Position numbers and translations under genes: made by a program. 64,000 nucleotides of DNA from Deinococcales bacterium (GTDB lineage: Bacteria; Deinococcota; Deinococci; Deinococcales; JAAFIG01). Below, in pieces: positions 1-64,000 of the stretch. The notes below the pieces were generated by a model that was not told the origin of the DNA, ran no database searches, and saw nothing but the letters and a program-made list of their open reading frames with translations. The stretch is from assembly GCA_031414595.1 (NCBI GenBank), contig JANNVX010000064.1, forward strand, positions 1-64,000, given 5' to 3'. Every line of letters starts with the position of its first letter. The first letter of the stretch is position 1.

Positions 1-122
1 GACGGGCGTATAACGAGTTGTTTGCAGAACGAATTATTCGTTTGTTGCCTTTGGAATTGAGCTTCGAGAAATACATTGTGTTGCTCGAGGACGCGCTTAA
101 TCTGGGAGTTAAGACTGCGTAA
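1..122 (+). CDS. 3' end of a CDS entering from the left (partial, unknown product)
   Basis: Open frame from 3 reads RAYNELFAERIIRLLPLELSFEKYIVLLEDALNLGVKTA and stops at TAA 120-122, convergent with the next gene. Confidence 0.45.
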   Translation, partial: RAYNELFAERIIRLLPLELSFEKYIVLLEDALNLGVKTA

Positions 123-133
123 AACATTCCAGA

Positions 134-679
134 CTATTGAAAAATAGATGTTGTAGAAATTGCTGATACCCAAATACCCCTTAACACTGCTTCGGTAGCT
201 TCTTCTGTTGATTCAAAAAATATATGAGCAATTCCAACTGCAAATGTATACCAAATAGCAAATGATAGAAGCATTAAAAGGTAGAACTGTGGGGTCAATA
301 ATTTTATTCGTAGTTGCTCACCAATTGAGCCGAAACTCAGGACATATTGAGAGTTTTGTTCTGGTCTTAGATTACCGTCAGAAGAAGTATTGTTGCTATT
401 CGGATTTGAATTAATAATTGAATCATCAGGTATTGTATTGGTGGGAAAAGCGCTATTTGAGCTTGTATTTGAGTCATTCAAAGACTTTCCCGTATTTAAA
501 CTATTAGTAGAAGGAGCAATAATACCATTCGGATTTGAATTAATAATTGAATCATCAGGTATCGTATTTGGATTATTCAATAATGTGGTTGACTTTCGGA
601 TATTTTCACTATAAAAAATAAGACCGCAAGTAACCAAAAACAGTAAAATAGCTATTCCAATCCAAATTTTTGGTTTCAT
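134..679 (-). CDS. Hypothetical membrane protein with Asn/Ser-rich linker and internal repeat
   Basis: N-terminal TM helix; NTIPDDSIINSNPN occurs twice; hydrophobic C-terminus resembles ORF 704..1027; very AT-rich. Confidence 0.6.
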   Translation of the reverse strand: MKPKIWIGIAILLFLVTCGLIFYSENIRKSTTLLNNPNTIPDDSIINSNPNGIIAPSTNSLNTGKSLNDSNTSSNSAFPTNTIPDDSIINSNPNSNNTSSDGNLRPEQNSQYVLSFGSIGEQLRIKLLTPQFYLLMLLSFAIWYTFAVGIAHIFFESTEEATEAVLRGIWVSAISTTSIFQ

Positions 680-703
680 CTAAACACCTCAAATTACTGT
701 ATT

Positions 704-1027
704 TTACGCATTGCGAGTAGTTAAAAAAGCAATTAGTGCCGTAATTATTAGAGTGGAAAACCCATAAGCAATTGCCACTGAAAGACTTGATAAAACTGAT
801 GGAATAATTGTAAAAAAGTAACCTACTAAGACAGCTACTAATGTGATGATAAAAACAGCCATCCAAGCACCAAAAGAGGATGCTTGGATGGCTTCCTGAC
901 CAGCATCAAACGAAAAGTGGGCAATAATTACAGCTAAAATGTACCAAAACAATAAGGCAACAATAATTGCTATATAAAACCCAACATTGCTTAGTAGTGG
1001 TGAAATTCCTAGCCAAATTTCGTTCAT
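704..1027 (-). CDS. Small hypothetical integral membrane protein (~3 TM)
   Basis: 107 aa hydrophobic ORF with an AGGAG RBS, 6 nt downstream of the preceding gene. Confidence 0.65.
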   Translation of the reverse strand: MNEIWLGISPLLSNVGFYIAIIVALLFWYILAVIIAHFSFDAGQEAIQASSFGAWMAVFIITLVAVLVGYFFTIIPSVLSSLSVAIAYGFSTLIITALIAFLTTRNA

Positions 1028-1033
1028 GGTCTC

Positions 1034-2356
1034 CTACTCTTTGCTTACTCGAAACTGGATGGTTATATTTAGAAATCGTGTTACACCATTATTCCCAGTC
1101 ACGTCTCCTTGAAACTCGAGGGTATGTTGTGAATCATCGGGCTTCAACTTAACTTTTGCGTCACCAAGTACCGTCTCTCCGTCAAGGCTCTGTAATTCTA
1201 AAGTTGCATCTGGTTGTATTCTGACTAAGTTTCCACTTTTTACAAAGCGCACCAATCTATTCCCCGTGGGAACTTTTGCATGGGTGGCAATAGGCTCACT
1301 GCTATCATTGATATAGTTTGCACCTGTAATGGCTGCAATTGTTCCATTGTTACGAATACCAGCCAGTGGAAATGTTTCAGGGTTCGTTTCGCTAATTTCA
1401 AGTACCCAGCCACCACTGCTTCCGCCTGAGCCAATCATTCGCACTACAACAAATGCGATAAGTCCAACCAATGGAATTAAAAGAAGCCAAATAGGAAAGC
1501 TACCACTGTTGTTTGAAACAGGTGTCACAGGTGTGCCAATGACTGTTCCTGCCAATAACTCTGTGCGCGAACCCCCTGATAATGTGCCACTGGTAAAGGT
1601 TTTGGGTACAAAAATAACAACCGCAATTTTGGCTTCTACGGTTTTGCCTTGCGAGTCTGTACCAACAAAAGGAATATCTAAAGTTGCTCCATCTTTAGTT
1701 CCTGGTATACGGTCTTTGGTCTCGAGAAGGGCTTGATATTCTGAGGCATTGCTTCCCATCAGTTGCTCTCCGGGCGCACCCTGACTAGCAGCGTAGTTCA
1801 GTAACATAATAAATATGGTGTTGCTTTTTGCTTGGTTGGGGAAATCATTTTTCTGGTCAAGTTCTACAGCCGCCCGTTCAAGGTCATGTCCGCCTTGGCT
1901 ACCAGCTTTTGGTGTGAGCGGAAAAATTTCTCGTACTTTGGCGGTTTTGGTTTCGTCTTTAGTATCACTAACAGACAAACTCAGGGTTGAGGCATCTGGG
2001 GTTTTATTTTCCCATAAGCCAAACTCGAAGGTACGCACAGAAACATTGTCTCCTGCAACTGCCGAATTTTGAATTAAGTTATTTGCTACTTGGCGAACAG
2101 CTTCGGCACGAATCGGGTCATCTTTGAAGAAACCTGTTTTGAAGGCAAGTACCCAATGAATAGGTTGGGTTTCCCAATTTCCACCTGTGCGCTGTAATGC
2201 CTCTTGAACGATTGCCACCAGTTTCGTTTCACCTGCCTGTAAACTCGCGGGGTCAAACTTGAAAACGACATCTTGTGCATGAGCAAACCCCAAAGCAAAA
2301 AGAACAGTAGTAAAGGAGTGCAACAAAAAGCGCATGAAAAAGTATACCTTATTCAT
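1034..2356 (-). CDS. Exported membrane-anchored protein (signal peptide, possible vWA-like alpha/beta domain, TM helix, beta-rich cytoplasmic domain)
   Basis: 440 aa ORF; signal peptide ending AHA-Q; TM segment FPIWLLLIPLVGLIAFVVV. Domain calls are inference. Confidence 0.65.
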   Translation of the reverse strand: MNKVYFFMRFLLHSFTTVLFALGFAHAQDVVFKFDPASLQAGETKLVAIVQEALQRTGGNWETQPIHWVLAFKTGFFKDDPIRAEAVRQVANNLIQNSAVAGDNVSVRTFEFGLWENKTPDASTLSLSVSDTKDETKTAKVREIFPLTPKAGSQGGHDLERAAVELDQKNDFPNQAKSNTIFIMLLNYAASQGAPGEQLMGSNASEYQALLETKDRIPGTKDGATLDIPFVGTDSQGKTVEAKIAVVIFVPKTFTSGTLSGGSRTELLAGTVIGTPVTPVSNNSGSFPIWLLLIPLVGLIAFVVVRMIGSGGSSGGWVLEISETNPETFPLAGIRNNGTIAAITGANYINDSSEPIATHAKVPTGNRLVRFVKSGNLVRIQPDATLELQSLDGETVLGDAKVKLKPDDSQHTLEFQGDVTGNNGVTRFLNITIQFRVSKE

Positions 2357-2427
2357 GAACTTGCTGTGAGCTAATTCACGCCAACTGGGTTCGGTCAGTT
2401 GCGTTTGTACTCGAGACTATACTGCCT

Positions 2428-3108
2428 TTAACCTTGATTTGGAAAGACCTGAACCTCCTGTACTCGCCCACCACTCGAGCGGGCTGCCATGTATGCAAAT
2501 GCCTCAGCGATTTCATTGGGTGTTATCCATGTGCTGGTGTCAGCATTCGGCATGTCACGGCGGTTAGCTGGTGTGTCTATCGCCCCCATCGGGTAAACCA
2601 CGCCATAACGCACAGCTTTTATTTCGGCGGCTAGGCTATTTATAAAAAGCGCCATTGCACCTTTGGCGGCGGTGTACAAGGCTAAATTCGCGCCAGAACC
2701 ACGGATTACTTGTCCAGCCGCGATTGCACCAAAAAAACCTCTGCTCTGCTCGAGAACGGCGGCAGTGGCGGCGGCGATGTTGACGGTACTGCGTAAGTTG
2801 CTGTCGAGCATTTGGTCATAGGTGCTGGGTTTATACTCGAGTATGCTTTCTATTGCAAAGCCGCCTATCGTGTGAATCACCCCGTCTAAACGCCCATGAG
2901 CATTAATAATCTGACCAACTGCTTTTTCTGCACCTTCAAGTGAACTCAGGTCGGCTGTGATTGATGTACCAAAAAGCCGTTCTCGAGGTGTTGAACTGGG
3001 GCGATCTAATAAGTACAAGGTTGTACCAAGCGATTCAAATTTAGCAATTATGCTTTGTGCCACTGCGCCACTTGCGCCAGTAATCAGGTAAATCTGGTTA
3101 TTTAGCAT
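2428..3108 (-). CDS. SDR family NAD(P)-dependent oxidoreductase
   Basis: ITGASGAVA glycine-rich motif and YTAAK catalytic YxxxK; ATG 3108 preferred as start. Confidence 0.85.
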   Translation of the reverse strand: MLNNQIYLITGASGAVAQSIIAKFESLGTTLYLLDRPSSTPRERLFGTSITADLSSLEGAEKAVGQIINAHGRLDGVIHTIGGFAIESILEYKPSTYDQMLDSNLRSTVNIAAATAAVLEQSRGFFGAIAAGQVIRGSGANLALYTAAKGAMALFINSLAAEIKAVRYGVVYPMGAIDTPANRRDMPNADTSTWITPNEIAEAFAYMAARSSGGRVQEVQVFPNQG

Positions 3109-3250
3109 TTGGTTATTGTACAAAAAGAGTCTGACTCGTGTCAGGGTTTTGTGACAGATGGCTGCCTACAATCGTTCACATTCAGGTTTTTATGGTCGTG
3201 TGACGGTCATGTGACGCTCAGATGCCATACTGTTTTTCGGAGGTTTACCG

Positions 3251-3583
3251 ATGATGTCCTATGCTCGTTCTCAAAAATCCAGTATGCCAATTGAACCCGA
3301 ACCATTGGTCATGCGTCAACTTGAAGGTAAATGGTCTGCTGTTTCGCCGTATCAAGTTTGGCAGCAAGTCGAATTGCAATCGGGTAAAATTAGTGTCAAG
3401 GTCAGAGGACAGCCAAGTTTGCGCGGTTATTTTTCCTTGCAAGGGCAGCAACTCGAGGTGACTTTAACTTCGGGTGTGGCGAGCGGACGAACGATTGAAT
3501 TTATGACTAGGTATCAAGTTTCAGATTTGGCATTAGCACTTGAGTTTTCGGTCTCGAGTTTCCAATTTCAGCGCATGACTTAA
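3251..3583 (+). CDS. Hypothetical protein
   Basis: 110 aa ORF preceded by GGAGG RBS at 3239-3243. Confidence 0.55.
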   Translation: MMSYARSQKSSMPIEPEPLVMRQLEGKWSAVSPYQVWQQVELQSGKISVKVRGQPSLRGYFSLQGQQLEVTLTSGVASGRTIEFMTRYQVSDLALALEFSVSSFQFQRMT

Positions 3584-3670
3584 TTTTGGGTTGACTTGCA
3601 GACACAGGTCAGTTATTTATGTTCTTTGCCCACTGTTGTTTCTTCGCTCCTCGGTTTAGACTGTGCAGGT

Positions 3671-4300
3671 ATGTCTCGTAACCGTCCCCCTTTCCAACAA
3701 ATGCAGCAACGCCGCGCTAAACTCCCCAAGGAAATGCGTCCTGCATCTGTCGCACAACAACAGACCCTGCTCGAGCAAGACCCGAAAAAACGGGCAAAAC
3801 TCGAGAAAGCCCGTGAACGGTATCAACCTGTCACCCTGACCGAAAAAATTATGATTCGAGCGCGTCCAGAAAAAGTCTATTACGCTGCTTTACCGCAAAA
3901 CGACCGCTTAAAATGGGATAAAACCGTGACCCGTTCGCAGTTTTTATCGCCAGACCCAAAGAAAAAAATCCCAGTCCCAAGCAAAGCCGCCGAAGGTGTT
4001 TATTTGGAACTGACCTATAACAGTATTTTACTGGGTGGTTTTCAATTCCGCTATGAATTTCTTCGCGCCCCCAATGGTTTTGTCTTACAAGCCACCAAAG
4101 GCGGAAGTATTTTACTGGCGGGTATTGCCGAATCATGGGCATTTGCCCCAACCAAGGGCGGAACAGAAGTAACCTTAACCCGCACCTATGTACCACGTTT
4201 TAAGTGGCTGCAAAAACGAGCCGCCCAAACCCAAGAGTCTGGTACAAAACTTGCCCTCGAGGGCTTAAAGAAATATGTCGAGAATCTGGCAGACAGATAA
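3671..4300 (+). CDS. SRPBCC/polyketide cyclase-like family protein with basic N-terminal extension
   Basis: Pattern IRARPEKVY...RLKWD...ESWAFAPTKGGTEVT...LEGLKKYVE; ATG 3671 follows a TAGACT -10-like box. Confidence 0.7.
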   Translation: MSRNRPPFQQMQQRRAKLPKEMRPASVAQQQTLLEQDPKKRAKLEKARERYQPVTLTEKIMIRARPEKVYYAALPQNDRLKWDKTVTRSQFLSPDPKKKIPVPSKAAEGVYLELTYNSILLGGFQFRYEFLRAPNGFVLQATKGGSILLAGIAESWAFAPTKGGTEVTLTRTYVPRFKWLQKRAAQTQESGTKLALEGLKKYVENLADR

Positions 4301-4371
4301 TGTTGCCCTAGCTATTGTCACCCCATTAGGGACAACTTGCCAGATTCGCTTTTCACGCCTAGACTGCACGT

Positions 4372-5394
4372 ATGGCTAAACATACGATTTGTTTGATCGA
4401 AGGTGACGGTATAGGGCATGAGGTTATAAGAGCCGCAAAATTGGTTCTCGAGGGGATGCAGGTAACGGGTGAACTCGAGTTTAATTGGCTGCACGCCGAG
4501 GCTGGTTGGGAGCTTTTTGAACGCACAGGCAACAGCATTCCAGATTCGACTTTAGAAATTGTTAAAAGCGCTTCAGCCACCTTGTTTGGAGCAGCCACCA
4601 GCCCGTCTAAAAAAGTAGCTGGGTTTAAGGGCGCGATTCGTCATATGCGTCGTGCCTTGGATTTATACGCCAATGTTCGTCCAGCCAAACATCATGCTGT
4701 CCCCGGCTCGAGAGCAGGGGTGGATTTAATTGTGGTGCGTGAAAATACCGAAGGGTTGTATGTCGAACAAGAACGCTCGTATATGGATGGCGAACTCGCC
4801 ATTGCCGAGGCGGTCATTACCAGACGGGCTTCGCAGCGAATCGGGGCGTATGCGGCAAAACTATCCTCGAGCCGAGCGCGTAAATTACTGCATATTGCCC
4901 ATAAAGCCAATGTGCTGCCAGTCACCCAAGGCTTATTCTTAAATACGGCAACCCAAGCAGCGCTGGCTTTTGATACAACCGTCAAAGATATTATTATAGA
5001 TAACTGCGCCATGCAGTTGGTCTCGAGACCCGAGCAATTTGATGTGATTGTCACAACCAACCTTTTTGGCGATATTATCTCTGATTTAACGGCTGGCTTG
5101 GTCGGTGGGCTTGGGATTGCTGCCAGTGGTAACATCGGCGACCAGTACGCGGTTTTTGAAAGTGTTCATGGCAGCGCCCCAGATATTGCCGGAAAGGGTA
5201 TCGCCAATCCGACCGCCACAGTTCTGGCAGCAGCGATGATGTTGCGGCACATTGGCGAAGAAATTGCCGCCACCCGTCTTGAGAAAGCGGTCGAAACTGC
5301 CTTAGAACATGGACCTCGCACCCGTGACTTGGGTGGAACACAAAGCACCTTGGAGTTTGCAAAAGTCTTACTCGAGGCGTACAGAACAGCTTAA
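4372..5394 (+). CDS. hicd: Homoisocitrate dehydrogenase (isocitrate/isopropylmalate dehydrogenase family, AAA lysine pathway)
   Basis: [34 protein letters not shown] and [15 protein letters not shown] closely match Thermus HICDH, which also lies upstream of pilM. Confidence 0.85.
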
Positions 5395-5410
5395 CCTTGT
5401 TTTTTGCAGT

Positions 5411-5441
5411 AAAAGGTGCGCTCTAGGGCGTACCTTTTTTT
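5411..5441 (+). terminator. Rho-independent terminator
   Basis: AAAAGGTGCGCTC-TAG-GGCGTACCTTTTTTT: stem-loop plus T-tract after hicd. Confidence 0.8.
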
Positions 5442-5674
5442 AGTACAGATGCAATTTATGTTGCTGGCACTGTATACTGATGCCCGAATATGATTGCAAA
5501 TTCTCACTTTGGAGTTCGGCGCTGGTCAGAGCCTATTTTTGGCAGACCCGCAGTCATCCCTAGAATGTGTTTGTACTTTGAAACGCATTTCCGTTGTATA
5601 CTTGCCGAGTCTGCAAGTGGATTTATTAGTGGAAGTCGTCGTGAAATTAGGAATTCCTCGACCAGAGGGGGCAT

Positions 5675-6853
5675 ATGAAAGACATGATCAACCGGCTCGT
5701 CAACCCGAAAATCGAGGCTATTGGTCTCGAGATTGGCACGAGTACGATCAAAATCGTGGAGTTAAAGGCGGGCAGTCCGCCAACATTGCGTAATCTCGCC
5801 ATTCGACCAACCCCTCCTGGCGCTGTCAGCGATGGTCAAGTGGTTGAACCGCAAGCTGTTGCCAATGAAATCAAGGCGGCTTTGGCAGAAAAGAAAATCC
5901 GCAACAAATATGTGGTGACGGCAGTGGCTCAGCAGTCTGCCATTACCCGTATTGTTTCTGTTCCCAAAATGACCAGCAAAGAACTGGACGATGCGATCAA
6001 ATGGGAAGCCGAACGTTATATTCCTTTTCCAATAGACGAAGTGGTTTTGGATTACGACACACTCGATAACCCAGATGACATTCCAGCTGATGGTCAAATG
6101 GAAGTGATGATCGCGGCAGCCCAACAAGAAGTGATTGCCCGTCTGGTCGAAGTGATTAAACTGGCAGGTCTCGAGCCAGTGGTGATAGATGTTAAGCCAT
6201 TTGCGGGTTTACGAGCCTTAAAGGGCAGTTTATTGGGCGAACACCTCAACAAAACCACGCTGACGGGTGCAAGGTTTACCGAAGGTGGCGAAGTTGGTGT
6301 GGTTCTCGAGATTGGCGCTTCAAGCTCTAACATTGCTTTGGTGCGTGGCGAAAGAATTTTACTAAACCGTACCATCAATGTTTCTGGTGACGATTTTACT
6401 GTAGCAATTCAAAAAGCCTTTAACTTGGATTTTAATGCTGCCGAAGAAATCAAATTGCAATACGCCACCGCTACCATCCCGACTGAAGACGAAGAGGATT
6501 TACTCGACTTTGATGTCAATAAAGAAAAGTATTCTCCTGCTAAAATCTTTGATGCGATTCGTACACCTCTACTTGACCTAACCACCGAAATCCGTCGTTC
6601 GCTCGAGTTTTATCGTGTGCAGTCTGGCGATATAACCGTAGACCGAATGTACCTGTCTGGTGGCGGTGCGAAATTGCGTGGTCTAGCTGACGCGATTGGC
6701 GACACTTTGGGTTTCCGAGTCGAAGTGGGCGACCCGTGGTTATCGGTTGCCTTTGATGATAGTCAGTTTGATTCAGCATTTTTGCGGTCTTCGGCTGCCG
6801 AGTTGGCTGTACCGCTCGGACTGGCGATGCGGGGGGTGAGTGGACTTGATTAG
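5675..6853 (+). CDS. pilM: Type IV pilus assembly protein PilM (actin-like)
   Basis: IGLEIGTSTIKIVEL, AIKWEAERYIPFPIDEVVLDY, EIRRSLEFY and LSGGGAKLRGL motifs. Confidence 0.95.
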   Translation: MKDMINRLVNPKIEAIGLEIGTSTIKIVELKAGSPPTLRNLAIRPTPPGAVSDGQVVEPQAVANEIKAALAEKKIRNKYVVTAVAQQSAITRIVSVPKMTSKELDDAIKWEAERYIPFPIDEVVLDYDTLDNPDDIPADGQMEVMIAAAQQEVIARLVEVIKLAGLEPVVIDVKPFAGLRALKGSLLGEHLNKTTLTGARFTEGGEVGVVLEIGASSSNIALVRGERILLNRTINVSGDDFTVAIQKAFNLDFNAAEEIKLQYATATIPTEDEEDLLDFDVNKEKYSPAKIFDAIRTPLLDLTTEIRRSLEFYRVQSGDITVDRMYLSGGGAKLRGLADAIGDTLGFRVEVGDPWLSVAFDDSQFDSAFLRSSAAELAVPLGLAMRGVSGLD

Positions 6854-7526
6854 AATTAACCTTTTACCAAAGACCCTGCGTAAACGTGTCGAGCCGGGCT
6901 GGTGGCGTTTAATTGCCATTGCTGTGCCACTTGTTGCCTTGGCAGTGATGATTGGTATGCAGTTAGCCGCAAATTCCGAACGTGACCAATTGGTGCAAAC
7001 CCGAGATGACCGCAATACCGAACTCGCATTGTTGCAAAAATACATCACTGCTCAAAACGAACTCACCGCCCAACAACGCGAACTTGAAGCCACAACCAGC
7101 ATCAAAGCCCAACTCGAGCGTGAGCGGGTGGCATGGTCTAAAGAAGTTCGCACTTTTACTTCACAAATCCCACGTAGCTTAGAAGACCCGCGCCGTTTAG
7201 CGGCTTCGTTGCAGAACATGGGTTTGCGTCGGATTGACCCTGCGGTTGCCACCAACCAAGCAGCCACAGGCGCATATGATGGTAAACCAGTCACCACCGA
7301 AGTAACCTTTAATGCCCAAGCCACCAGCTTAAACGATGTTGAAACCTTCCAACGTGCCTTTGAAAACAGTGACCGCTTTGGAATCAACTTGGGTTCGGTG
7401 ACCAGAGGGCAGGATAACAACAGCACAAACTCAAGGTACACCTTTAATGCCACCGTAGGGCTTGTAGATGCTGCCGCCGCCACACCCGTGCCACCACCCG
7501 CAGCCACGCCACCAGGAGGACAATGA
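6840..7526 (+). CDS. pilN: Type IV pilus assembly protein PilN
   Basis: N-terminal INLLP motif, TM helix and coiled coil; overlaps pilM. Confidence 0.9.
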   Translation: MDLIRINLLPKTLRKRVEPGWWRLIAIAVPLVALAVMIGMQLAANSERDQLVQTRDDRNTELALLQKYITAQNELTAQQRELEATTSIKAQLERERVAWSKEVRTFTSQIPRSLEDPRRLAASLQNMGLRRIDPAVATNQAATGAYDGKPVTTEVTFNAQATSLNDVETFQRAFENSDRFGINLGSVTRGQDNNSTNSRYTFNATVGLVDAAAATPVPPPAATPPGGQ

Positions 7527-8215
7527 TGTCTAATATCTCTTCGTTGTTTTCACGTTTAACCGGTCAAATGATTGCGCTGATTGTTTTGGTGGTCACGATC
7601 CTTTTGGCTGTCCTGTGGTACACCCAAATGTATCAACCCGTCTTAGACGAACAGGCTGCCTTAAGAACCGAAATTACCGACCTTGACCAAAAAATTGCTG
7701 TAGGCAACCGTGCCAAAGCCAATGTGCCGCAGCTTTGTACGGTGGTGGCTGATTTACAAGTCCAACGCAAAGAATTCCTCAATGCCTTACCAAGTAAAGA
7801 ACAGTATGCCGACTTAATGCGAACCTTTAAGTTACAAATCGGCAATAACAAAGGGCAAATCAATAGCCTTGGTCGGTCGGTCGGTGCAACCACTGGTGTA
7901 TTGCCTGCTGGAGTAAGAGCCGTCAGCACAGCCTTGAACCTCACTGGCTCGTTCACATCAGTCATTGGCATTTTGCAATCACTCGAGAGCCAACAGCGTT
8001 TCTTACGCATGGATGGTGTCAACTTAACGCTCGGTGGTAACAATAATAACGCTGCCACTACAGAAACGACTTCTGATCCTAAATTAACCGCCGCGATTTC
8101 TGTAATCGCCTATGTTTATGACGCGGCTCGAGGGGCAGTAGACCGCCCACTTAACCCGTTGTGTCAAGTTCCAGTGATAACAACACCCGTAATAACCCCG
8201 GAGGTACCGCGATGA
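7523..8215 (+). CDS. pilO: Type IV pilus assembly protein PilO
   Basis: N-terminal TM, coiled coil and C-terminal ferredoxin-like pattern (LTGSF...LESQQRFLRMDGVNL); operon position. Confidence 0.85.
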   Translation: MMSNISSLFSRLTGQMIALIVLVVTILLAVLWYTQMYQPVLDEQAALRTEITDLDQKIAVGNRAKANVPQLCTVVADLQVQRKEFLNALPSKEQYADLMRTFKLQIGNNKGQINSLGRSVGATTGVLPAGVRAVSTALNLTGSFTSVIGILQSLESQQRFLRMDGVNLTLGGNNNNAATTETTSDPKLTAAISVIAYVYDAARGAVDRPLNPLCQVPVITTPVITPEVPR

Positions 8216-9858: not shown

Positions 9859-9866
9859 GGTCGCAC

Positions 9867-10790: not shown

Positions 10791-10806
10791 TTCTCGAGGT
10801 ATAGTG

Positions 10807-12357: not shown

Positions 12358-12370
12358 ACCAAGCACCAAC

Positions 12371-51073: not shown

Positions 51074-51098
51074 GGATTCCCCTTGGGGTCTGTGCAAA

Positions 51099-51123: not shown

Positions 51124-51124
51124 A

Positions 51125-52318: not shown

Positions 52319-52331
52319 TTATACCTCCAAT

Positions 52332-53366: not shown

Positions 53367-53377
53367 ATGAAACTCCT

Positions 53378-56782: not shown

Positions 56783-56816
56783 CGTGTCTCACCACCTTGT
56801 CTCGAGTTTGGCTTCT

Positions 56817-57797
56817 TCACGTCAATATCCCTTGAACCTCGGCAAAGAAACAACACCAATCGCCGACGGTTACATTGGGTAAGGCTCGTAAACCAAAAAT
56901 TCTGCCATCGGCTGGGGCGGTTAAAGTCTCTTGTAAATCGCCGTAAACATCGTAAATTCGGGCAATCACATCGCCTTTTTTCATCGTTTTTTTGAATTCG
57001 GCTGACTCATCGGCTAGAAATAAACCACTGCATGGTGCAAGCAGCGCATGTTGCACACCTGTATAACGTGGCTCGGCGTATCTGGCTTGCCCGTCCAGCA
57101 TCTTGTAATGACGCATCACGTTCAGGGCAGCATCCGCCAAGACCCGTCCAACTCGAGCAAAATCTTTTGGGCTGGTGGCACTTCGCCCACCGAGTTCAAC
57201 TGTAATTCCCGTCTTACCGACCTCGAGCATCGAAGCCATTGGATTACCTTTGGGCAAAAAGGCTTTCAGGGCTAAGTCCCAACCCTCACCCATTGCCTTG
57301 GCGAGTTCCTGAGATTTTGCGTCCTCGGTGGCAAAAATTGTCTCAGACAAATACGAATGCGCTCCGCCCGAATGGATGCTCAGTTCTAAATCCGCTACCT
57401 TGATCATCCACAGGCTATGTTCATAACAAATCCGTTCCGAAAAATACCCGTTCGGCTTACCAGGGTAAATTCGGTTCATGTCGTAGCTGAACGTATCGAG
57501 CGGATTACCTCGAGAGGCGGCTTCAAAGGCTGGCACATTGATGACTGGCACAAGCACCAACGACCCGTGCAACTCGGCGGGATTGACTTCACGGCGCAGG
57601 ATATGGCACATCAAAGGACCTTCGGGTTCATCGCCATGAATTGCGCCATCTACCCACAAGCAAGGACCATCATGTGCGCCGTTAATCACCACCACGGGAA
57701 TCTCGAGTGGTGTCCCACCCGCCAGTTTAGAGACGGGGATTGCACCAAGTGCCACGCTATTTGGCTCGGCTTTGGCTGTTCCAACTGTAATTGTCAT
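56817..57797 (-). CDS. Succinylglutamate desuccinylase/aspartoacylase family (M14-like)
   Basis: IHGDE, DMNRIYPG, IHSGG and TVELGG; C-terminal biotinyl-like hairpin. Confidence 0.88.
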   Translation of the reverse strand: MTITVGTAKAEPNSVALGAIPVSKLAGGTPLEIPVVVINGAHDGPCLWVDGAIHGDEPEGPLMCHILRREVNPAELHGSLVLVPVINVPAFEAASRGNPLDTFSYDMNRIYPGKPNGYFSERICYEHSLWMIKVADLELSIHSGGAHSYLSETIFATEDAKSQELAKAMGEGWDLALKAFLPKGNPMASMLEVGKTGITVELGGRSATSPKDFARVGRVLADAALNVMRHYKMLDGQARYAEPRYTGVQHALLAPCSGLFLADESAEFKKTMKKGDVIARIYDVYGDLQETLTAPADGRIFGLRALPNVTVGDWCCFFAEVQGILT

Positions 57798-57842
57798 GGT
57801 TCTCCTCAAATGAAATAGACTTGAAAACAGATTGCTCGAGGT

Positions 57843-57868
57843 GGGCGAGGCATACCTCGCCCCTACGG
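57843..57868 (-). repeat. GTAG-type REP-like palindrome, copy 2
   Basis: GGGCGAGGCATACCTCGCCCCTACGG on the + strand. Confidence 0.8.
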
Positions 57869-57935
57869 TGGATGACTCATTTTTTTGCTGTCCTTCTAAA
57901 AGCTAGAAGCTAGTGACTAGCAGCTAGAAGCCAAA

Positions 57936-58409
57936 TCAAATCCCTTGTACTTTTTGGTACTGCTCGAGTTCTTCTGGGGTATAAACCTGCATAAATTCGA
58001 TTTCGATACCACCCGCGTCGTTGTCTAAAAATGCGACGTAACCTTCTGGGTGCGGGTGCGAACCATACACATCACACGCTTTACAAATGCGTAAACTTGC
58101 GCCGTGGGCTTGAGCATGTTCGAGAGCAGCTTTTATATCGCTGACTTCATAGCAAATATGATGCAGTCCTTCGGCGTTCCGTTCGGCAATCCAGGCTGCG
58201 AAACGTCCGTCGGCATCCATGCTTTCGCAAAGTTGATACTCGATGTTACCAAGGTTAAACAGCGCCACGCGATTGCGTGATTTTTGGTACTCGAGAATTG
58301 GCGTGTCGGCTGGCACATCCAAGAATCTCGAGTAGGTCTCGAGGGCTTTTTTGGCATCACGCACTGCAAACGCCATGTGCTTAATAGATTTAACTTCTGG
58401 GTTTGTCAT
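57936..58409 (-). CDS. VOC family protein (methylmalonyl-CoA epimerase-like)
   Basis: HMAFAVRD, EGLHHICYEV and IEIEF metal-ligand motifs. Confidence 0.8.
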   Translation of the reverse strand: MTNPEVKSIKHMAFAVRDAKKALETYSRFLDVPADTPILEYQKSRNRVALFNLGNIEYQLCESMDADGRFAAWIAERNAEGLHHICYEVSDIKAALEHAQAHGASLRICKACDVYGSHPHPEGYVAFLDNDAGGIEIEFMQVYTPEELEQYQKVQGI

Positions 58410-59611
58410 GCTTCCCCTTTTAACTTTGGTAGGGCTTTAGCAATTCGTTCCGCCGCTTCTTCTAATTTTTGAATTGGTTGCAATAATGAAATACGAATAA
58501 AATCATCGCTGTGGTCGCCAAATAACGAACCGGGGAAAATCATCACTTTGGCTTCCTCGAGTAAGCGCACACAAAAATTTCCAGCCCCTAAACCTGTGCT
58601 GCTGATATTGGTGTACAAATAAAATGCACCTTGAGGTTGTCCATAAGTCAGCCCTAAATTATCCAGTACCTTGCGAAAATAAGTGCGTCTCGAGGCAAAA
58701 ATTTGGCGGTACTCGAGAACACAATCTTGCGAACCCCGCAACGCCGCCAATGCTGCATGTTGCGAAACCGCAGGGGCGCAAATTGTTAAACCATGATGAA
58801 TTTCATTCATTGGAATCACCAATTCTCGAGGGGCAGCAAAATAACCAATGCGCCAACCCGTCATGGCGTAGGCTTTAGAAAAACCATTAACGGTGATGGT
58901 GCGTTCCTTCATGTTTGGTAGGCTGGCAAAACTGGTCACGGATGAACCGTCATAAACGAGGCGTTCGTAAATTTCATCGGAAATGACAATTAAGTTAAAT
59001 TCGATAGCTAAAGCCGCCAGTTTCTCAATTTCTGTTCTTGGCGTGACTGCTCCAGTCGGATTACTTGGGTTCATCAAACACAAAATTCTCGAGCGAGGCG
59101 TGATTTTTGCCCGAACCGCTTCGGCAGTCAATGCAAAATTATCTTTTTGGAAGGTTGGCACAGTCACAACCACGCCCCCCGCCAATTCAACCGCTTGATT
59201 GTAAGAAGTGTAACCCGGAGAAGTCAGCAGTACCTCGTCACCAGCATTTAGAAGCGCCAGCATACTGACATAAATACCTTCTTGCGCTCCTGCCGTGACC
59301 ACAATTTCATCTGCGGTATAGTGCAAAGAATTTTCTGTCTCGAGCTTATGGCAAATGGCTTGACGCAACTCGAGCAAGCCTTGCGGTGCAGTGTAATGGG
59401 TTGCCCCAGCCGCCAATGCCTTCTGTCCCGCCTCGATGATATGAATTGGCGTAGGCAAATCTGGGTCGCCACGCCCAAGCGCAATCACACCGTCCAGCTT
59501 AGCGGCAATGCCCAGCATCTTGGTGCGAATAGATTCATCTTGATGAATAATCCGGTCCGCAATTTGGTAACGCATGGTACTCACAAAATCTCCTTTGGTT
59601 GACTGCTGCAC
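58406..59611 (-). CDS. PLP-dependent aminotransferase class I/II (paralog of 51125..52318); start uncertain (59575-59611)
   Basis: SNPTG, SDEIY and GFSKAYAMTGWRIGY. Confidence 0.9.
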   Translation of the reverse strand: MQQSTKGDFVSTMRYQIADRIIHQDESIRTKMLGIAAKLDGVIALGRGDPDLPTPIHIIEAGQKALAAGATHYTAPQGLLELRQAICHKLETENSLHYTADEIVVTAGAQEGIYVSMLALLNAGDEVLLTSPGYTSYNQAVELAGGVVVTVPTFQKDNFALTAEAVRAKITPRSRILCLMNPSNPTGAVTPRTEIEKLAALAIEFNLIVISDEIYERLVYDGSSVTSFASLPNMKERTITVNGFSKAYAMTGWRIGYFAAPRELVIPMNEIHHGLTICAPAVSQHAALAALRGSQDCVLEYRQIFASRRTYFRKVLDNLGLTYGQPQGAFYLYTNISSTGLGAGNFCVRLLEEAKVMIFPGSLFGDHSDDFIRISLLQPIQKLEEAAERIAKALPKLKGEA

Positions 59612-59630
59612 ACAAGAACGTGAATTCCGA

Positions 59631-59745
59631 CGAACTCCCCCTCGCTTCGCTCGACCCCTCCATGAGGGGTGCTAAGGTCAAGGTCTGGCACTTTGCCCCC
59701 CTCATGGAGGGGGAAACTCGAGCGAAGCGCGAGTGGGGGAGTTCG
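59631..59745. repeat. ~115-bp long imperfect inverted repeat (MITE/REPIN-like)
   Basis: CGAACTCCCCC-TCGCTTCGCTCGA-CCCCTCCATGAGGGG pairs with CCCCTCATGGAGGGG-TCGAGCGAAGCG-GGGGGAGTTCG. Confidence 0.75.
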
Positions 59746-59820
59746 TGACCAATTGCGTTTTGCCAAGATACTTTGAGGCTGTTTTGTCTCGAGTTTTTAT
59801 CTCGAGACACGGCGTTTGAT

Positions 59821-61653
59821 TTAGCGCTTTACATAAGCTGTGTCTAAGAAATTAAAGAGTTCGCCAATGTAACCGTTGGCGGTGCTTTGGAATGCGCCCA
59901 TTGGGTCTTTGAGTTGGTCTTGGGTGTTGCCAACGCGGTTTTTATAGGCAACATGTAAGCCTCGAGTGTACAAGTAGACCAAAGGTAGGTTCTCGGCAGC
60001 CACTTTTTGAAATTGGTCGTAGATTTGTTTGCGAGCAGCCGTGTCCAGTGTCGAAAGCCCTTGGGTAACCAGTTTATCCAAGAGGATTTCAAAGGATTCT
60101 GGTTTTTCGGGTTTGCTCTGCCCAGCACGGTTTAAGTTCCAGATATGCGCCACACCGTTTAAGTTGTACAAGTTACGGCGGGTCGGTGGGTCAGAAACAC
60201 CACCAAAATCGGTGAACGACAAATCAAAGTTGCGAGTGCCATCTGGGTTAAAGTTGCGAAGCGCTGGGTTAATCACACTGCCATTGTCTGCCACGGTAAA
60301 ACTGGCATCAATACCAACTTTTTTCATGTCTTCGATGATGATTGGCGCAGCCACTTTTTGTAGGGCTTCGGTCGAGACCACCAAGGCGTTCATTTTGATG
60401 GCTTCGCCTTTGCTGTTGACCAAAAAGCCACTCGAGTTTTTGCGGGTAAAACCAAGTTCACGCAGCAAGGTAGCAGCTCGAGTCGGGTTGTAACTAAATT
60501 TGCTGCTGCCTTCGACAAATAAACTGTCGTTGTACCATTTGGTGTTACCGCTCGAGATAGGTCCGTACAATGGTTTGCCCAGTCCGCCCAATCCGACTTT
60601 GACAATTGTTTCACGGTCTACAAGGTGCGATAAGGCACGGCGGAATTTTGCATTGCGGCAGAGGGTGGCTTTGAACGGGTCTTTGTTTTGGAAGTTGCAA
60701 AAAATCGTCGAGGTCACAGCCGTTTGGGTGATGTTGATTTTCAGTTCGCCATCCAAACGTCCACTGCTGATGGCTTGGCGGACTCCTTGCACCTCGTCTA
60801 TGGTCAGTGGTTGGAAAACATCTTGTTGCCCAGCAATAAAACCAGCCAGACGTGCGTTGGTATCGGCAAAGTTCTTAGCGATAATGCGGTCTAAGTACGG
60901 TAATTTATTGCCTTTTTCGTCTACGCCCCAATAATCGGGGTTGCGGCGCAAGGTCATTTCTTCACCCGGTTTATAGGACTCAACCAAGAAAGGTCCTGCC
61001 CCAACGATGTTTTTAGGGTCGGTGCTGACATTGTACGCGCCTTGGACAGCCGCTTCGCCGCGTTCGGCAAGGGGTTGCCAAATGTGCTTAGGCACAATAG
61101 ACCAGTCAGCTAAGTCAAGGAAGGCTGCATCGGTGATGTTTAAGGTCATGCGAACCGTGTCTGCATCTACTTTCGTCCATTTAATTTCTTTGCCCGCTTG
61201 GGTAAAATCTGAGCGCTGTCTCGAGTTGATTTTGACGTTGCTGTGCAACTCGGCGCTGTAAATGATGTCATCGGCGGTCAGCGCTCTGCCATCTGACCAT
61301 TTGATGCCTGTGCGGATATTAAAGTTTACATCCAAACCGCGCTGCGTTACACTGGTACAAACATAGCATTCGTTCTGACCTGTGGCAGCATTAAACTGTA
61401 CCAACTGCGGAAACCAGAGGTACTGAATAAAGGTGTCCGAAAGCGACTGCACCGTAAACGGATTAAAAGTTGGTGGCAAACCAACCAAGCCGTAAGTCAG
61501 TGTTCCGCCTTTAACGGCTGTACCATCACCGCCAAAACGTGCTGTGCGAACCAAAGCCTGCGAGGACTGTTGGGCTTGTCCCTGAATCGAAACCACTGCT
61601 GCTGCAACCACCAGCGCAGCCCCGAGCCAACTGAGTTTTGAGCGAACGTTCAT
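59821..61653 (-). CDS. Peptide ABC transporter substrate-binding protein (family 5)
   Basis: Signal peptide; TFNP, KWSDG..LTADD, GAGPF and LPYLD. Confidence 0.9.
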   Translation of the reverse strand: MNVRSKLSWLGAALVVAAAVVSIQGQAQQSSQALVRTARFGGDGTAVKGGTLTYGLVGLPPTFNPFTVQSLSDTFIQYLWFPQLVQFNAATGQNECYVCTSVTQRGLDVNFNIRTGIKWSDGRALTADDIIYSAELHSNVKINSRQRSDFTQAGKEIKWTKVDADTVRMTLNITDAAFLDLADWSIVPKHIWQPLAERGEAAVQGAYNVSTDPKNIVGAGPFLVESYKPGEEMTLRRNPDYWGVDEKGNKLPYLDRIIAKNFADTNARLAGFIAGQQDVFQPLTIDEVQGVRQAISSGRLDGELKINITQTAVTSTIFCNFQNKDPFKATLCRNAKFRRALSHLVDRETIVKVGLGGLGKPLYGPISSGNTKWYNDSLFVEGSSKFSYNPTRAATLLRELGFTRKNSSGFLVNSKGEAIKMNALVVSTEALQKVAAPIIIEDMKKVGIDASFTVADNGSVINPALRNFNPDGTRNFDLSFTDFGGVSDPPTRRNLYNLNGVAHIWNLNRAGQSKPEKPESFEILLDKLVTQGLSTLDTAARKQIYDQFQKVAAENLPLVYLYTRGLHVAYKNRVGNTQDQLKDPMGAFQSTANGYIGELFNFLDTAYVKR

Positions 61654-61725
61654 ACTTCCTCCTTTGAAACCAAGCACCTTGTCTTCTCGAGCCGCTAATT
61701 TAAGTTAGAAATCGTTTCAAATAGA

Positions 61726-62895
61726 TCACCGCCTTGCCTTGGGGTCAAGTGCATCACGTAAACCGTCCCCCACAAAATTAAAAGCCAGTACCGCCACGAA
61801 AATAAAGAAGCCCGGAAGTAACATCCACGGTCTCGAGGTAAAAGTCTGCATTCCGCCTTCTTGTGCCACCGCCAGCATCAAACCCCAACTCGAGTTTGGG
61901 TCACTTATCCCAAGCCCAAGAAAACTCAGTCCAGATTCGGTCAAGATAAACCCCGGAATCAGCAGGCTAAACGAGACAATCGCAAAACTGGCAGTGGCGG
62001 GCAGAACATGCCTAAAAATAATTCGAGCATCCGCCGCCCCAAGCCCGCGAGCCGCCATCACAAAGTCTTCTTCGCGTAAGCTCAGCACCTGACCACGCAC
62101 TGCTCGAGCCACAGGACCCCAACGGATTAAACCAAGAATCATCACCACCACAAAATAAACCACCCCAGACTTGGCATCCAAAGGAAATAGCGCCCGCAGT
62201 GCCAGCAGCAAAAATAAACCGGGAATGGTCGCCAATATCTCGACGATACGCATAATAAAATCATCCAACCAACCGCCATAAAAACCAGAAATTGCGCCCA
62301 TCACTACACCGACAATTAGGGATAGGGTGGCAGCCATAATCCCGATGGTCAGTGTCACCCTTGCGCCAAACAGAATCCGGCTAAAGACATCGCGCCCAAG
62401 TTTATCTGCCCCCCAAACAAAAAGCGTGGCGGGTTTGTCTACCCCAAAAAGCCGTAAGGAAATTTGTGGGTCAAAACCCGAAGCATTGCGCCATGAAACT
62501 GGAATCAGGTTAATTGGAAACGGGGTGTACGGCTGCCCACTGGTCAAGAGTTTAATCGGAAAACGCTGCGTAATGTCTTCTTTGTACTCGAGTTCCAAGG
62601 TGTCCAGATTTAGGCTGCTCGAGACATTATAAACAAAGGGTAAGGTTAAGCTCTTGGTCTCGGGGTCAATCCAATGCACCTTGGTTGGCGGGGCGTAACT
62701 GCGGTCAATTGCGCCTCGAAAAAAAGATTCAGATTCGCCGTAAGGGGAAATAAAATCAGCCATTGCTGCCAGAGCATAGAAAAACCCCAGTACCCATAAA
62801 CTCAGCACTGCCAAACCGTGCTTGGCAAATTGAGTCCGCACCACTTGCCCTCGAGACAAGGCTTTGACGGGCGTGTTTTCGGTTAATAAGCTCAT
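61726..62895 (-). CDS. Peptide ABC transporter permease (OppC-like)
   Basis: GADKLGRDVFSR, FVMAARGLGA and GDGLRDALDP. Confidence 0.92.
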   Translation of the reverse strand: MSLLTENTPVKALSRGQVVRTQFAKHGLAVLSLWVLGFFYALAAMADFISPYGESESFFRGAIDRSYAPPTKVHWIDPETKSLTLPFVYNVSSSLNLDTLELEYKEDITQRFPIKLLTSGQPYTPFPINLIPVSWRNASGFDPQISLRLFGVDKPATLFVWGADKLGRDVFSRILFGARVTLTIGIMAATLSLIVGVVMGAISGFYGGWLDDFIMRIVEILATIPGLFLLLALRALFPLDAKSGVVYFVVVMILGLIRWGPVARAVRGQVLSLREEDFVMAARGLGAADARIIFRHVLPATASFAIVSFSLLIPGFILTESGLSFLGLGISDPNSSWGLMLAVAQEGGMQTFTSRPWMLLPGFFIFVAVLAFNFVGDGLRDALDPKARR

Positions 62896-63947
62896 GCGTA
62901 GCGAATCCTAGGGTCAACAAGGGCGAGTAACAAATCCGAAAATAAATTGCCAATCATCAGTAAAATTGCCGATAAGACCAATAAACCCATGACCACATAC
63001 AAATCTTGTTGTTGAATCGCAATCACAAAACCGGGCGTGATTCCGGGCCAACGGTAGACAAACTCGACCAAACCCGCACCAGTAACCAACTCGGGCAGAA
63101 TCGTGCCAAGCCCAGACACGACCGGACCAATGGCATTACGCAGCACATGCTTATAAGTCACAACCCGCTCAGATAAACCCTTGGCTCTGGCGGTGCGTAC
63201 AAAATCGGCTTTTAGGAACTCGAGCATCTGACTGCGAACTACTCGCACTAGACTGGATAAACCCGAGGTGGTGACCACAATGGTTGGTAAAATCAGATGC
63301 CAAGCGCGGTCAATCATCTGCTGCCACCACGGTAAATTGTCGTAAATCTCGGTGGTTCGCATCCCGCCGACTGGGAAAATCAAACCGTTTTTGAGGTCAT
63401 AGGTCAAAAACTCGAGTATCGGCTTGTACCACGCCTCCCCCTTTGCTACCTGACGCAAATCGGCTTGAAAGGCGAGGACACCGACAATCAAAAGCAGAAT
63501 AAAAAAGAAATTTGGCAGTGCCAGACCCATGATGCTTAAAAAACTCACGACTTTATCGCCATTGCTGTACTGTTTTGCCGCCTGATAAATGCCAATCGGA
63601 ATGGCTAAAACATAGGTCAGCACCAAAGAAATAACCACCAGACTGAGGCTATTCCAAATTAAAGGCACAATAATATCTGATACTGGCGAGCGGTAAGTAA
63701 ACGACTCCCCCAAATACCCAAGGGTCAGGATTCCCCAAATCCAACGAAAATACTGAACAATAATTGGTTGATCCAAGCCAAAATTCTGACGCAGCCGCTC
63801 GAGTTGCCCCGCATCAGCATTTGGGTCAAGCGCAAAACGGTCGGTGAAATCACCGGGGGTCAGTTGAATAATCATAAACGCCAGAAGTGTCGCCCCGATA
63901 AAGGTCGGCACAATTTGAAGTAAACGTTTTGCCACGTATTGAATCAC
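62892..63947 (-). CDS. Peptide ABC transporter permease (OppB-like)
   Basis: PGDF, FGLDQP, DFVRTARAKG and LVDPRIRY. Confidence 0.92.
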   Translation of the reverse strand: MIQYVAKRLLQIVPTFIGATLLAFMIIQLTPGDFTDRFALDPNADAGQLERLRQNFGLDQPIIVQYFRWIWGILTLGYLGESFTYRSPVSDIIVPLIWNSLSLVVISLVLTYVLAIPIGIYQAAKQYSNGDKVVSFLSIMGLALPNFFFILLLIVGVLAFQADLRQVAKGEAWYKPILEFLTYDLKNGLIFPVGGMRTTEIYDNLPWWQQMIDRAWHLILPTIVVTTSGLSSLVRVVRSQMLEFLKADFVRTARAKGLSERVVTYKHVLRNAIGPVVSGLGTILPELVTGAGLVEFVYRWPGITPGFVIAIQQQDLYVVMGLLVLSAILLMIGNLFSDLLLALVDPRIRYA

Positions 63948-63960
63948 GAGTCAGAACCTC

Positions 63961-63988
63961 GGAGGAAGGAGGAAGGAGGAAGGAGGAA
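63961..63988. repeat. Heptamer tandem repeat (GGAGGAA)4
   Basis: Directly visible in the sequence. Confidence 0.85.
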
Positions 63989-64000
63989 AAAAAACGAGTT

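Follow-up and report, generated by a model that had tools for sequence, protein, structure and literature searches.

The palindromic hexanucleotide CTCGAG is present in extreme excess in a 64,000-base stretch of DNA from a Deinococcales bacterium (contig JANNVX010000064.1 of assembly GCA_031414595.1, C64:1-64000, to be referred to as the window) and throughout the genome to which the window belongs (G000; 4,488,778 bases in 120 contigs, 47.2% G+C). The window contains 350 copies of this word (5.5 per kb), and the genome contains 23,235 (5.18 per kb, or 5,176 per Mb), with a mean interval of about 190 bases. The over-representation is a real highly iterated palindrome (HIP). The force behind this excess targets the DNA word as such, is limited to exactly six bases, operates in all contexts, and is found across a whole family of related genomes.

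Abundance and statistical excess

The copies are distributed along the entire window, with 25, 34, 47, 62, 41, 50, 53, and 38 sites in consecutive 8-kb bins. In dinucleotide-preserving shuffles of the window the mean number of sites was 8.26 (standard deviation 3.03) and the largest was 17; none of the 100 shuffles reached the observed count. Over the whole genome, the observed/expected ratio is 23.9 when the expectation is based on base composition, and the excess is 76-fold relative to a second-order Markov model trained after masking of the sites (304 sites expected). A maximal-order Markov expectation (ratio of 1.16) was discarded as a test because the 5-mers on which it is conditioned are themselves built from CTCGAG, and the masked second-order model and the shuffles were used instead. 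The first-pass annotation of the window had counted about 60 sites over the initial 16 kb, with 16 within the rsmF gene, and had claimed an excess over expectation on this basis. The recount gives 59 sites in bases 1-16000 and 16 in rsmF, and the genome-wide ratios of 23.9 to 76 confirm the excess.

CTCGAG is by far the most over-represented hexamer of the genome. The next words have ratios of 7.3 or less, and all of them are overlapping neighbors of CTCGAG. It is also the only palindromic hexamer with an observed/expected ratio above 2.2, and the reversed control word, GAGCTC, has only 6 copies compared to the 23,235 of CTCGAG. A tens-fold excess and a density of hundreds to thousands of copies per Mb, the hallmarks of a HIP, are both observed for this word.

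The unit, its spacing, and site-free stretches

None of the 8-mer extensions of CTCGAG is above its own Markov expectation, and each of the twelve positions on either side of the word carries less than 0.03 bits. Distances between neighboring sites follow a nearly geometric distribution (mean 191, coefficient of variation 0.99) over the 120 contigs. Distances of less than about 20 bases are under-represented, and one of exactly 6 is never seen, in our reading because two sites so placed would create GAGCTC, a word that the genome avoids. At the other extreme, there are 42 gaps above 1.5 kb, compared to about 9 predicted by the geometric distribution.

Most of the genome is covered by the sites. 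At least one is present in 3,140 of 3,244 open reading frames (ORFs), and only 1.5% of 2-kb segments have at most one site per kb. The tRNA genes contain 7 sites in 5,310 nt, compared to 27.5 expected at the genome density. There are 43 stretches of at least 1.5 kb that lack CTCGAG, and they are mostly low in G+C; eight of the ten site-free ORFs longer than 1.2 kb have a G+C content of 37% or less. The largest such stretch (C46:36674-41608, 33% G+C) is an island for polysaccharide synthesis, in which a family 2 glycosyltransferase is encoded together with a hexapeptide transferase and a flippase-like protein. Another of the largest (C30:4286-7534, 31.5% G+C) carries a clostripain-family peptidase beside an AAA/TPR protein. 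These two stretches are probably recent imports, and the site-free low-G+C stretches in general would represent DNA that has recently arrived from outside the family and has yet to gain sites.

Independence from codon and amino-acid usage

As a proxy for the genes, 3,244 non-overlapping ORFs of at least 150 residues, covering 3.73 Mb of the genome, were used. They contain 19,163 sites (5.14 per kb), of which 11,423 are in the Leu-Glu frame (CTC GAG), 3,712 in the frame xCT CGA G, and 4,028 in the frame xxC TCG AGx. The DNA outside the ORFs (765,497 nt) contains 4,094 sites (5.35 per kb), and inter-ORF gaps of less than 100 nt (48,480 nt) contain 247 (5.09 per kb). Ten synonymous-codon shuffles within the ORFs, which keep every protein sequence and the codon usage of each ORF, produced 1,828 ± 38 sites, roughly ten-fold fewer than observed. 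When the three frames are taken separately, the shuffled and observed counts are 1,213 and 11,423, 367 and 3,712, and 248 and 4,028, an excess of 9- to 16-fold. This null is conservative, because the motif itself inflates both the protein sequence and the codon usage. The first-pass annotation had considered codon-pair bias alone to be unlikely, and this judgment holds: the excess survives the codon-preserving shuffle in every frame, and it is neither lost after control for amino-acid and codon usage nor confined to the Leu-Glu frame, with sites in the other two frames and in the short gaps between ORFs as well.

The preferred codons of the genome are TTA, TTG, and GAA, and CTC and GAG appear mainly inside the motif. 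CTC makes up 65% of Leu codons before Glu and 8% before codons that do not start with G, and GAG makes up 70% of Glu codons after Leu and 20% elsewhere. In the other two frames, CGA makes up 82% of Arg codons in the xCT-CGA-G context compared to 13% ahead of codons with a first base other than G, and TCG makes up 81% of Ser codons in the C-TCG-AG context compared to 13% elsewhere. Of 18,995 Leu-Glu pairs, the 11,423 spelled CTCGAG represent 60%, while about 1.6% is predicted from background codon use. Leu-Glu is the most over-represented dipeptide in the ORFs, at 2.22 times expectation, compared to 0.98 times for Glu-Leu. The bias is thus strong enough to recode 60% of the Leu-Glu pairs and to double this dipeptide in the proteins. 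The RpoB genes of family members have 8–13 sites, compared to 0–2 in Deinococcus-type sequences. Some of these sites arose by replacement of Ile-Pro or Ile-Glu with Leu-Glu, and a Leu-Arg-Val segment that is otherwise invariant across 26 aligned sequences is Ala-Arg-Val in the four closest genomes.

There is next to no chance that the sites are a by-product of composition, codon usage, or amino-acid usage, a dispersed mobile repeat, or an assembly artefact. In a Thermus-like genus (g9) the frequency of CTCGAG is about equal to that of the control GAGCTC, which agrees with an origin in composition, and CTC and GAG would be expected as preferred codons in such G+C-rich genomes. In the genome studied here, however, the two codons are little used outside the motif, the codon-preserving shuffle accounts for less than 10% of the sites, the density in non-coding DNA equals that in coding DNA, and GAGCTC is nearly absent. 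The sites have no flanking consensus, and the signal is present in 19 independent assemblies, one of them a single contig. Explanations of this kind are refuted by the densities in the three frames and in non-coding DNA, the GAGCTC control, the codon shuffle, and the absence of flanking information. The excess of CTCGAG is not a coding effect; the bias acts on the DNA word itself.

Distribution across the Deinococcales

The assembly contains no 16S rRNA gene; based on RpoB, the genome is located among uncultured assemblies labeled 'Deinococcales bacterium'. CTCGAG and GAGCTC were counted in the 19 genomes of its family and, for the other groups, in a set of 251 Deinococcales genomes of at least 80% completeness, in which no conclusion depends on G240, a genome marked as unpublished; the group names used here (Deinococcus-like and so on) are inferred from named rpoB loci and not from genome labels. 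In the family of the window (f1), all 19 genomes, from five genera, have about 4.3–6.8 CTCGAG per kb, with 0–568 copies of GAGCTC. The palindrome is old and common to this whole uncultured family. The rpoB loci of the family range from 46 to 62% in G+C and yet have 3.3–6.2 CTCGAG per kb, and the trait does not follow base composition.

The other groups form a gradation. Meiothermus-like genomes (genus g13, as judged from the M. granaticius rpoB locus, with 63 CTCGAG in 23,315 bases, 8.0 times expectation) are intermediate; together with genera g22 and g24 they have about 1.4–3.5 CTCGAG per kb and 278–4,391 copies of GAGCTC. The earlier guess that relatives such as Meiothermus share the excess is strongly supported. 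The family f2, which appears to be Truepera-like, is also intermediate, with about 0.3–2.7 CTCGAG per kb and 62–4,926 copies of GAGCTC, and its low-G+C members have about 9 times the expected number of CTCGAG. The presumably Thermus-like genus g9 has 0.94 CTCGAG per kb at the rpoB locus and 1,113–2,680 copies of GAGCTC, with no excess of CTCGAG over this control. The family f3, mostly genus g7 (77 genomes), appears to be Deinococcus-like. Its genomes avoid CTCGAG (26–2,175 copies, with 10–2,012 copies of GAGCTC), and the rpoB locus of Deinococcus lacus has none in 23,360 bases.

Conservation and turnover of the sites

The genome was aligned with two relatives, G003 of the same genus (222,748 bases, 79.1% identity) and G005 (76,254 bases, 92.7% identity). 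In the comparison with G003, 927 of 1,214 CTCGAG sites are conserved, while the value for other hexamers is 27.9% in coding and 32.9% in non-coding DNA. Conservation extends to every category of site: 503 of 646 are kept in the Leu-Glu frame, 183 of 238 and 133 of 190 in the remaining frames, and 108 of 140 in non-coding DNA. In the comparison with G005, 379 of 431 sites are conserved, compared to 65–69% of other hexamers. The per-base identity to G003 is 0.77–0.79 in the immediate flanks and 0.91–0.92 within the six bases, and it falls straight after them, equally in coding and non-coding DNA. The same step is observed at the sites inside the window against four relatives. The footprint of the bias therefore ends exactly at the hexamer, and the unit is the bare six bases.

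The words that differ from CTCGAG by one transition are not depleted, with 2,674 copies of TTCGAG/CTCGAA, 1,930 of CCCGAG/CTCGGG, and 2,325 of CTTGAG/CTCAAG in the genome. By arithmetic on these counts, the site-to-neighbor ratios are 17, 24, and 20 for half-site positions 1, 2, and 3. At equilibrium the outflow from the 23,235 sites is balanced, so that the return flows are about 17, 24, and 20 times faster per neighbor copy. The bias toward the exact hexamer is about 20-fold and is similar at all three half-site positions, including the one that requires a change from C to T. Among the lost sites, the most common single change is the CpG transition to CTTGAG/CTCAAG (43 cases, compared to 26 and 13 for the other transition types). 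The scaled advantage of a site may be estimated at roughly 2 to 4.5 from the rate of loss, the excess in non-coding DNA, and the fraction of synonymous opportunities that are occupied; this strength is comparable to that of strong codon selection.

Nucleases, repair enzymes, and methyltransferases

XhoI-family nucleases (PF04555) were found in none of the 19 family genomes, PaeR7I-type nucleases not being searched separately, and Vsr (PF03852) was likewise found in none of the 19. Among 31 relatives, PF04555 is present in one, the Thermus-like genome G021, where the nuclease gene is convergent with that of a PF01555 methylase (G021:C1:74896-76793, L126:5897-7794); this genome still has 3,937 CTCGAG. 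The observed/expected ratio of CTTGAG/CTCAAG, the neighbor of CTCGAG derived through a T:G mismatch, is 1.08–1.48, and this word is not depleted. The system is thus neither a classical XhoI-type restriction system nor Vsr patch repair.

The genome has at least 24 distinct DNA methyltransferase genes from five Pfam families, including 8 matches to PF01555 over the cut-off, 5 to PF00145, 8 to PF07669 over the cut-off, further ones to PF02384, and 1 to PF02086. They are located on contigs C1, C4, C11, C12, C18, C22, C27, C32, C41, C43, C44, C47, C48, C62, C64, C67, C89, C90, C98, C100, and C104. With a minimum of 35% identity and 50% of the length taken to define an orthologue, none of them is shared with more than two of the five other family genomes compared, other methylase families not being searched; the family assemblies are 57–94% complete and unrelated enzymes can share one specificity, which limits the weight of this negative result. 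The single-contig genome G013 has no match to PF01555, and G010 has none to PF00145. The near-absence of methyltransferases shared with other genera suggests a fast-turning arsenal of restriction systems.

Several candidates for a CTCGAG methyltransferase were considered and rejected. Two D12-class methylases common to genera g3 and g5 (G013 and G011) have strong matches in only 7 and 8 of the 19 genomes and none in G000. The methylase beside the XhoI-family nuclease of G021, used as a probe, has only motif-level matches at the C-terminus in G000. Methyltransferases on contigs C89 and C4 carry a TaqI-like specificity domain, but their nearest solved relatives include CamA-like enzymes and M.BseCI as well as subunits of type I methylases; they have no orthologues in the five other family genomes and were dropped. 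The first-pass annotation had suggested a search for an XhoI/PaeR7I- or TaqI-like orphan methyltransferase, and no candidate for such an enzyme held.

Avoidance of other palindromes is extreme in this genome. The observed/expected ratio is below 0.05 for 30 of the 64 palindromic hexamers, with 0 copies of GGGCCC, 2 of TGCGCA, 3 of CGATCG, 6 of GAGCTC, 26 of GTCGAC, and 29 of TTCGAA. Among the 4-mers, GGCC has only 152 copies and GATC has a ratio of 0.14. GAGCTC is nearly absent from most of the family genomes.

Possible origins of the excess

The first-pass annotation had proposed that a methylation-, repair- or uptake-driven process actively creates CTCGAG. An active, word-level bias is supported by the three frames, the masked Markov model, the codon shuffle, and the conservation of the sites. 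The part of the proposal that invokes methylation or patch repair found no support: neither the XhoI nuclease nor Vsr was found in the 19 family genomes, no methyltransferase orthologue is shared across the family genomes compared, and there is no depletion specific to T:G mismatches.

The explanation that we favor, with a probability of about 40%, is a molecular drive linked to DNA exchange or repair. A protein, probably dimeric in the manner of type II enzymes, would read the bare 6-bp palindrome and would bias the choice of the surviving allele during DNA uptake, recombination, or repair. The resulting drive would be akin to the one behind DNA uptake sequences and to what is now proposed for HIP1 in cyanobacteria; CTCGAG methylation could be part of it. 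Foreign DNA would arrive free of sites and then slowly acquire them. This drive is favored because the pattern in the genome and the proteome matches the effects of uptake sequences, and because selection on 23,000 interchangeable sites would be hard to sustain. Moreover, HIP1 is reported to raise transformation efficiency in a methylation-dependent manner and has been proposed as an uptake signal, and pilM, pilN, a pilO-like gene, pilQ, ComEC, and DprA are all present in the genome.

Several points weigh against a drive of this kind. The pil, ComEC, and DprA genes are common in bacteria, so they give weak support for uptake and none for specificity. Known uptake sequences have asymmetric cores of 9–12 bp with flanking preferences, and Thermus is not known to have a sequence preference in DNA uptake. 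CTCGAG, a bare palindromic hexamer with less than 0.03 bits per flanking position, is shorter and more symmetric than these sequences. No candidate for the reader protein was found, with one unusual ORF of the pilus operon examined. This ORF, of 565 residues, gave no lead as a DNA receptor; it is simply fast-evolving, with 53–55% identity within the genus and clear homologues only there. In the sub-clade of G000, G001, and G005, the changes in window positions 40950-60950, polarized with G003 and G007, consist of 24 losses, 7 gains, and 7 ambiguous cases. CTCGAG is thus slowly being lost in this sub-clade, not gained, in agreement with its lower density there (5.2 per kb, compared to 6.2–6.4 in genus relatives, about 15% fewer). 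The sub-clade looks as if the force had weakened. In addition, a fixation bias, whether from drive or from selection, leaves the same comparative pattern as a lower mutation rate within the sites.

Elhai has proposed methylation-guided repair as a model for HIP1. Applied here, a methyltransferase would mark CTCGAG, and mismatch or very-short-patch repair that uses the mark would restore or create sites, which would then accumulate. A 6-bp palindrome is a typical target of type II methyltransferases, the genome has at least 24 DNA methyltransferase genes, and the CpG transition is the most common single difference at lost sites. Each alternative cyanobacterial HIP is accompanied by a methyltransferase of matching specificity (PMC4390886), orphan CTCGAG methyltransferases exist in Nocardia (PMC4752239), and CTCGAG is methylated in some hot-spring genomes (preprint 10.64898/2026.06.24.734251). 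The accessible passages of this preprint describe 'Group 2' hosts and phages that share methylated CTCGAG and TCGA, without stating the phylum of Group 2, and are taken as a lead only. The model is possible but unlikely here, as the components expected of it are missing: neither Vsr nor the XhoI nuclease family was found in the 19 genomes, no methyltransferase of G000 has orthologues in more than two of the five other family genomes compared, G013 and G010 have no match to PF01555 and PF00145, respectively, and the D12-class enzymes of g3 and g5 are strong in fewer than half of the genomes and missing from G000. Moreover, the T-containing neighbors are not depleted, and CCCGAG, which needs a change from C to T, is disfavored as strongly as the others, unlike what is expected for T:G-specific repair.

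Direct selection on each site is improbable as well. Here a cell protein would use CTCGAG, either as a mark of self at which the nucleases of the cell stop (a missing-self signal, or one that resembles Chi but is palindromic) or as the binding site of a nucleoid, segregation, or replication factor. Such selection agrees with the maintenance of the sites far above the background rate, equally in non-coding DNA, with their presence in nearly all ORFs, and with the extreme restriction pressure indicated by the avoidance of other palindromes. On the other hand, the loss of one among about 23,000 interchangeable sites should cost almost nothing, which would be a poor fit to a scaled advantage of about 2–4.5. 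The spacing is random and not regular, the related Deinococcus-like genomes manage with almost no CTCGAG, and known Chi sites are asymmetric and far sparser.

Quite improbable is an accumulation through lower mutation out of CTCGAG, with the hexamer shielded or repaired with unusual accuracy and piling up at mutational equilibrium. A 20-fold lower exit rate gives the same equilibrium excess and the same hexamer-exact step in conservation. Like the other models, it still requires a factor that is sequence-specific, in this case a protective one, and it does not readily explain the sites created by amino-acid replacements at otherwise conserved positions of RpoB or the recoding of 60% of the Leu-Glu pairs, which calls for a long and efficient inflow.

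The drive linked to exchange or repair may also be given a more specific form, which we put forward tentatively and regard as rather doubtful. CTCGAG might be a kin-recognition tag for DNA exchange, with a dimeric receptor or recombination factor that prefers palindrome-bearing DNA. Transformation with the DNA of relatives would then drive CTCGAG to about one copy per 190 bases in restriction-saturated bacteria. If true, this would be the first system in the Deinococcota to resemble uptake sequences and the first such system to rely on a 6-bp palindrome; it would parallel HIP1 independently, and highly iterated palindromes in general would be signatures of sequence-biased DNA exchange. Viral contigs with three CTCGAG within about 70 bases were also considered; the 80 loci among the matches listed were mostly from G+C-rich phages that also bear GAGCTC, and they are uninformative on the phages of the family.

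Genes of the window

The features identified in the window are listed in Table 1. The competence-type pil locus claimed by the first-pass annotation was recovered, with pilM, pilN, a pilO-like gene, and pilQ, and ComEC and DprA are also present in the genome. Between the pilO-like gene and pilQ lie the ORFs of 565 and 311 residues, which belong to no known family and are 39% identical over about 95 residues at the C-terminus. A defense-type cluster (33271-39467) adjoins the tRNA gene. In archaea, the Bax1 endonuclease partners the XPB helicase. A repeat of about 120–130 bases at 59630-59746 has further copies on contig C102 of the genome and in several relatives, with 75–87% identity, and may be a small dispersed element.

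Table 1. Features identified in the window
Feature	Position	Strand	Remarks
Type IV pilus / competence-type locus	5675-12357	+	
pilM	5675-6853	+	
pilN	6840-7526	+	
pilO-like gene	7523-8215	+	
ORF of no known family	8161-9858	+	565 residues
ORF of no known family	9855-10790	+	311 residues
Secretin pilQ	10804-12357	+	
Bax1-type endonuclease (DUF790)	12398-13639	-	Pfam 1e-127; NCBIfam 'endonuclease Bax1' 2.5e-43
tRNA gene	33271-33344		Adjoins defense-type cluster
Schlafen/AlbA_2 + HATPase_c_4 protein	33654-35411		Defense-type cluster
Type ISP-like DNA methyltransferase with specificity domain	35336-38662	-	Pfam Type_ISP_C 1e-88 and N6_Mtase; not conserved family-wide
ORF of no known family	38715-39467		250 residues; defense-type cluster
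rsmF, 16S rRNA m5C1407 methyltransferase	43427-44797	+	NCBIfam NF041567 4e-105; 16 CTCGAG in 1.37 kb

Significance and comparison with known systems

To our knowledge, HIP1 has remained unexplained for three decades and has until now been the only well-studied lineage-wide hyper-abundant palindrome. CTCGAG is a second, independent case, in another phylum. Full-text searches gave no account of CTCGAG over-representation in the Deinococcota, within a scope that excluded subscription journals and closed preprint supplements, and a term search of the texts of the two main HIP1 papers found no mention of CTCGAG, Deinococcus, or Thermus. The Deinococcales offer a graded natural series, from the family (4.3–6.8 per kb) through the Meiothermus-like genomes (1.4–3.5 per kb) and the Thermus-like ones with no excess over control to the avoidance in the Deinococcus-like genomes. 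Some of these relatives are cultivable and transformable, which makes the question of origin (methylation-guided repair, biased uptake, or selection) directly testable. The recoding of Leu-Glu pairs and the doubling of this dipeptide show how far a force at the level of DNA can reach into proteins. For this clade, CTCGAG is also of practical use as a marker in binning, in cloning, and in the recognition of foreign DNA.

Restriction-modification systems of the XhoI/PaeR7I type have the same 6-bp target, and G021 has an XhoI-family nuclease beside a PF01555 methylase. Such systems predict avoidance, as in the Deinococcus-like genomes, and not a 24-fold excess, and PF04555 was found in none of the 19 family genomes. 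Dcm/Vsr repair in Escherichia coli (CCWGG versus CTWGG) is also tied to a methylated palindrome and shifts word frequencies. The present case differs in that no Vsr was found in the 19 family genomes, there is no depletion of the T-containing neighbor of CTCGAG, all positions are subject to an equal bias, and the effect is far larger. The orphan methyltransferase of Nocardia recognizes the identical word and has a function other than restriction; its sites cluster near dnaA and the replication origin (PMC4752239), whereas those described here cover the whole genome evenly.

The DNA uptake signal sequences (USS) of the Pasteurellaceae and the DNA uptake sequences (DUS) of the Neisseriaceae are longer than CTCGAG and asymmetric, with flanking preferences. 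They resemble it in having thousands of copies in all frames, an approximately doubled encoded peptide, absence from newly acquired DNA, and the presence of competence machinery. The tripeptides encoded by USS and DUS are about doubled, recently acquired genes lack the sequences, and their accumulation is attributed to molecular drive (PMC2817400). The corresponding observations here are the 2.22-fold Leu-Glu and the location of site-free stretches in low-G+C accessory islands. No asymmetric 9–12 bp core with a flanking consensus is found in CTCGAG, and its 23,235 copies compare to 1,471 in H. influenzae and 1,892 in N. meningitidis (PMC2817400).

The closest likeness is to HIP1 (GCGATCGC) and the alternative cyanobacterial HIPs (GGCGCC, GCsGC, and rCCGGy). 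They are also short G+C-rich palindromes, present at a tens-fold excess both in coding sequence and outside it. They are common to a lineage, with some relatives that lack them or have replaced them, and their conservation exceeds neutral expectation. Presence in all frames and in non-coding DNA beyond codon usage, and family-wide sharing with conservation of the sites, are both observed for CTCGAG. There are differences as well. CTCGAG is a hexamer and not an octamer, it belongs to another phylum, the Deinococcota, and among the family genomes compared no methyltransferase was found to travel with it. Its spacing is random at the scale that can be tested on 120 contigs (coefficient of variation 0.99); Xu and colleagues reportedly described, in 2018, a quasi-periodic distribution of HIPs along the chromosome. 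Reported HIP densities are 300–2,700 per Mb, with observed/expected ratios of 55–228, and the center of HIP1 is the most protected (PMC4390886). CTCGAG is denser than this range, at 5,176 per Mb, and its deviations are most common at the central positions. CTCGAG is thus a HIP-type element outside the cyanobacteria, in a second phylum: a hexamer, with no conserved methylase detected, in a genome that is nearly purged of most other palindromes.

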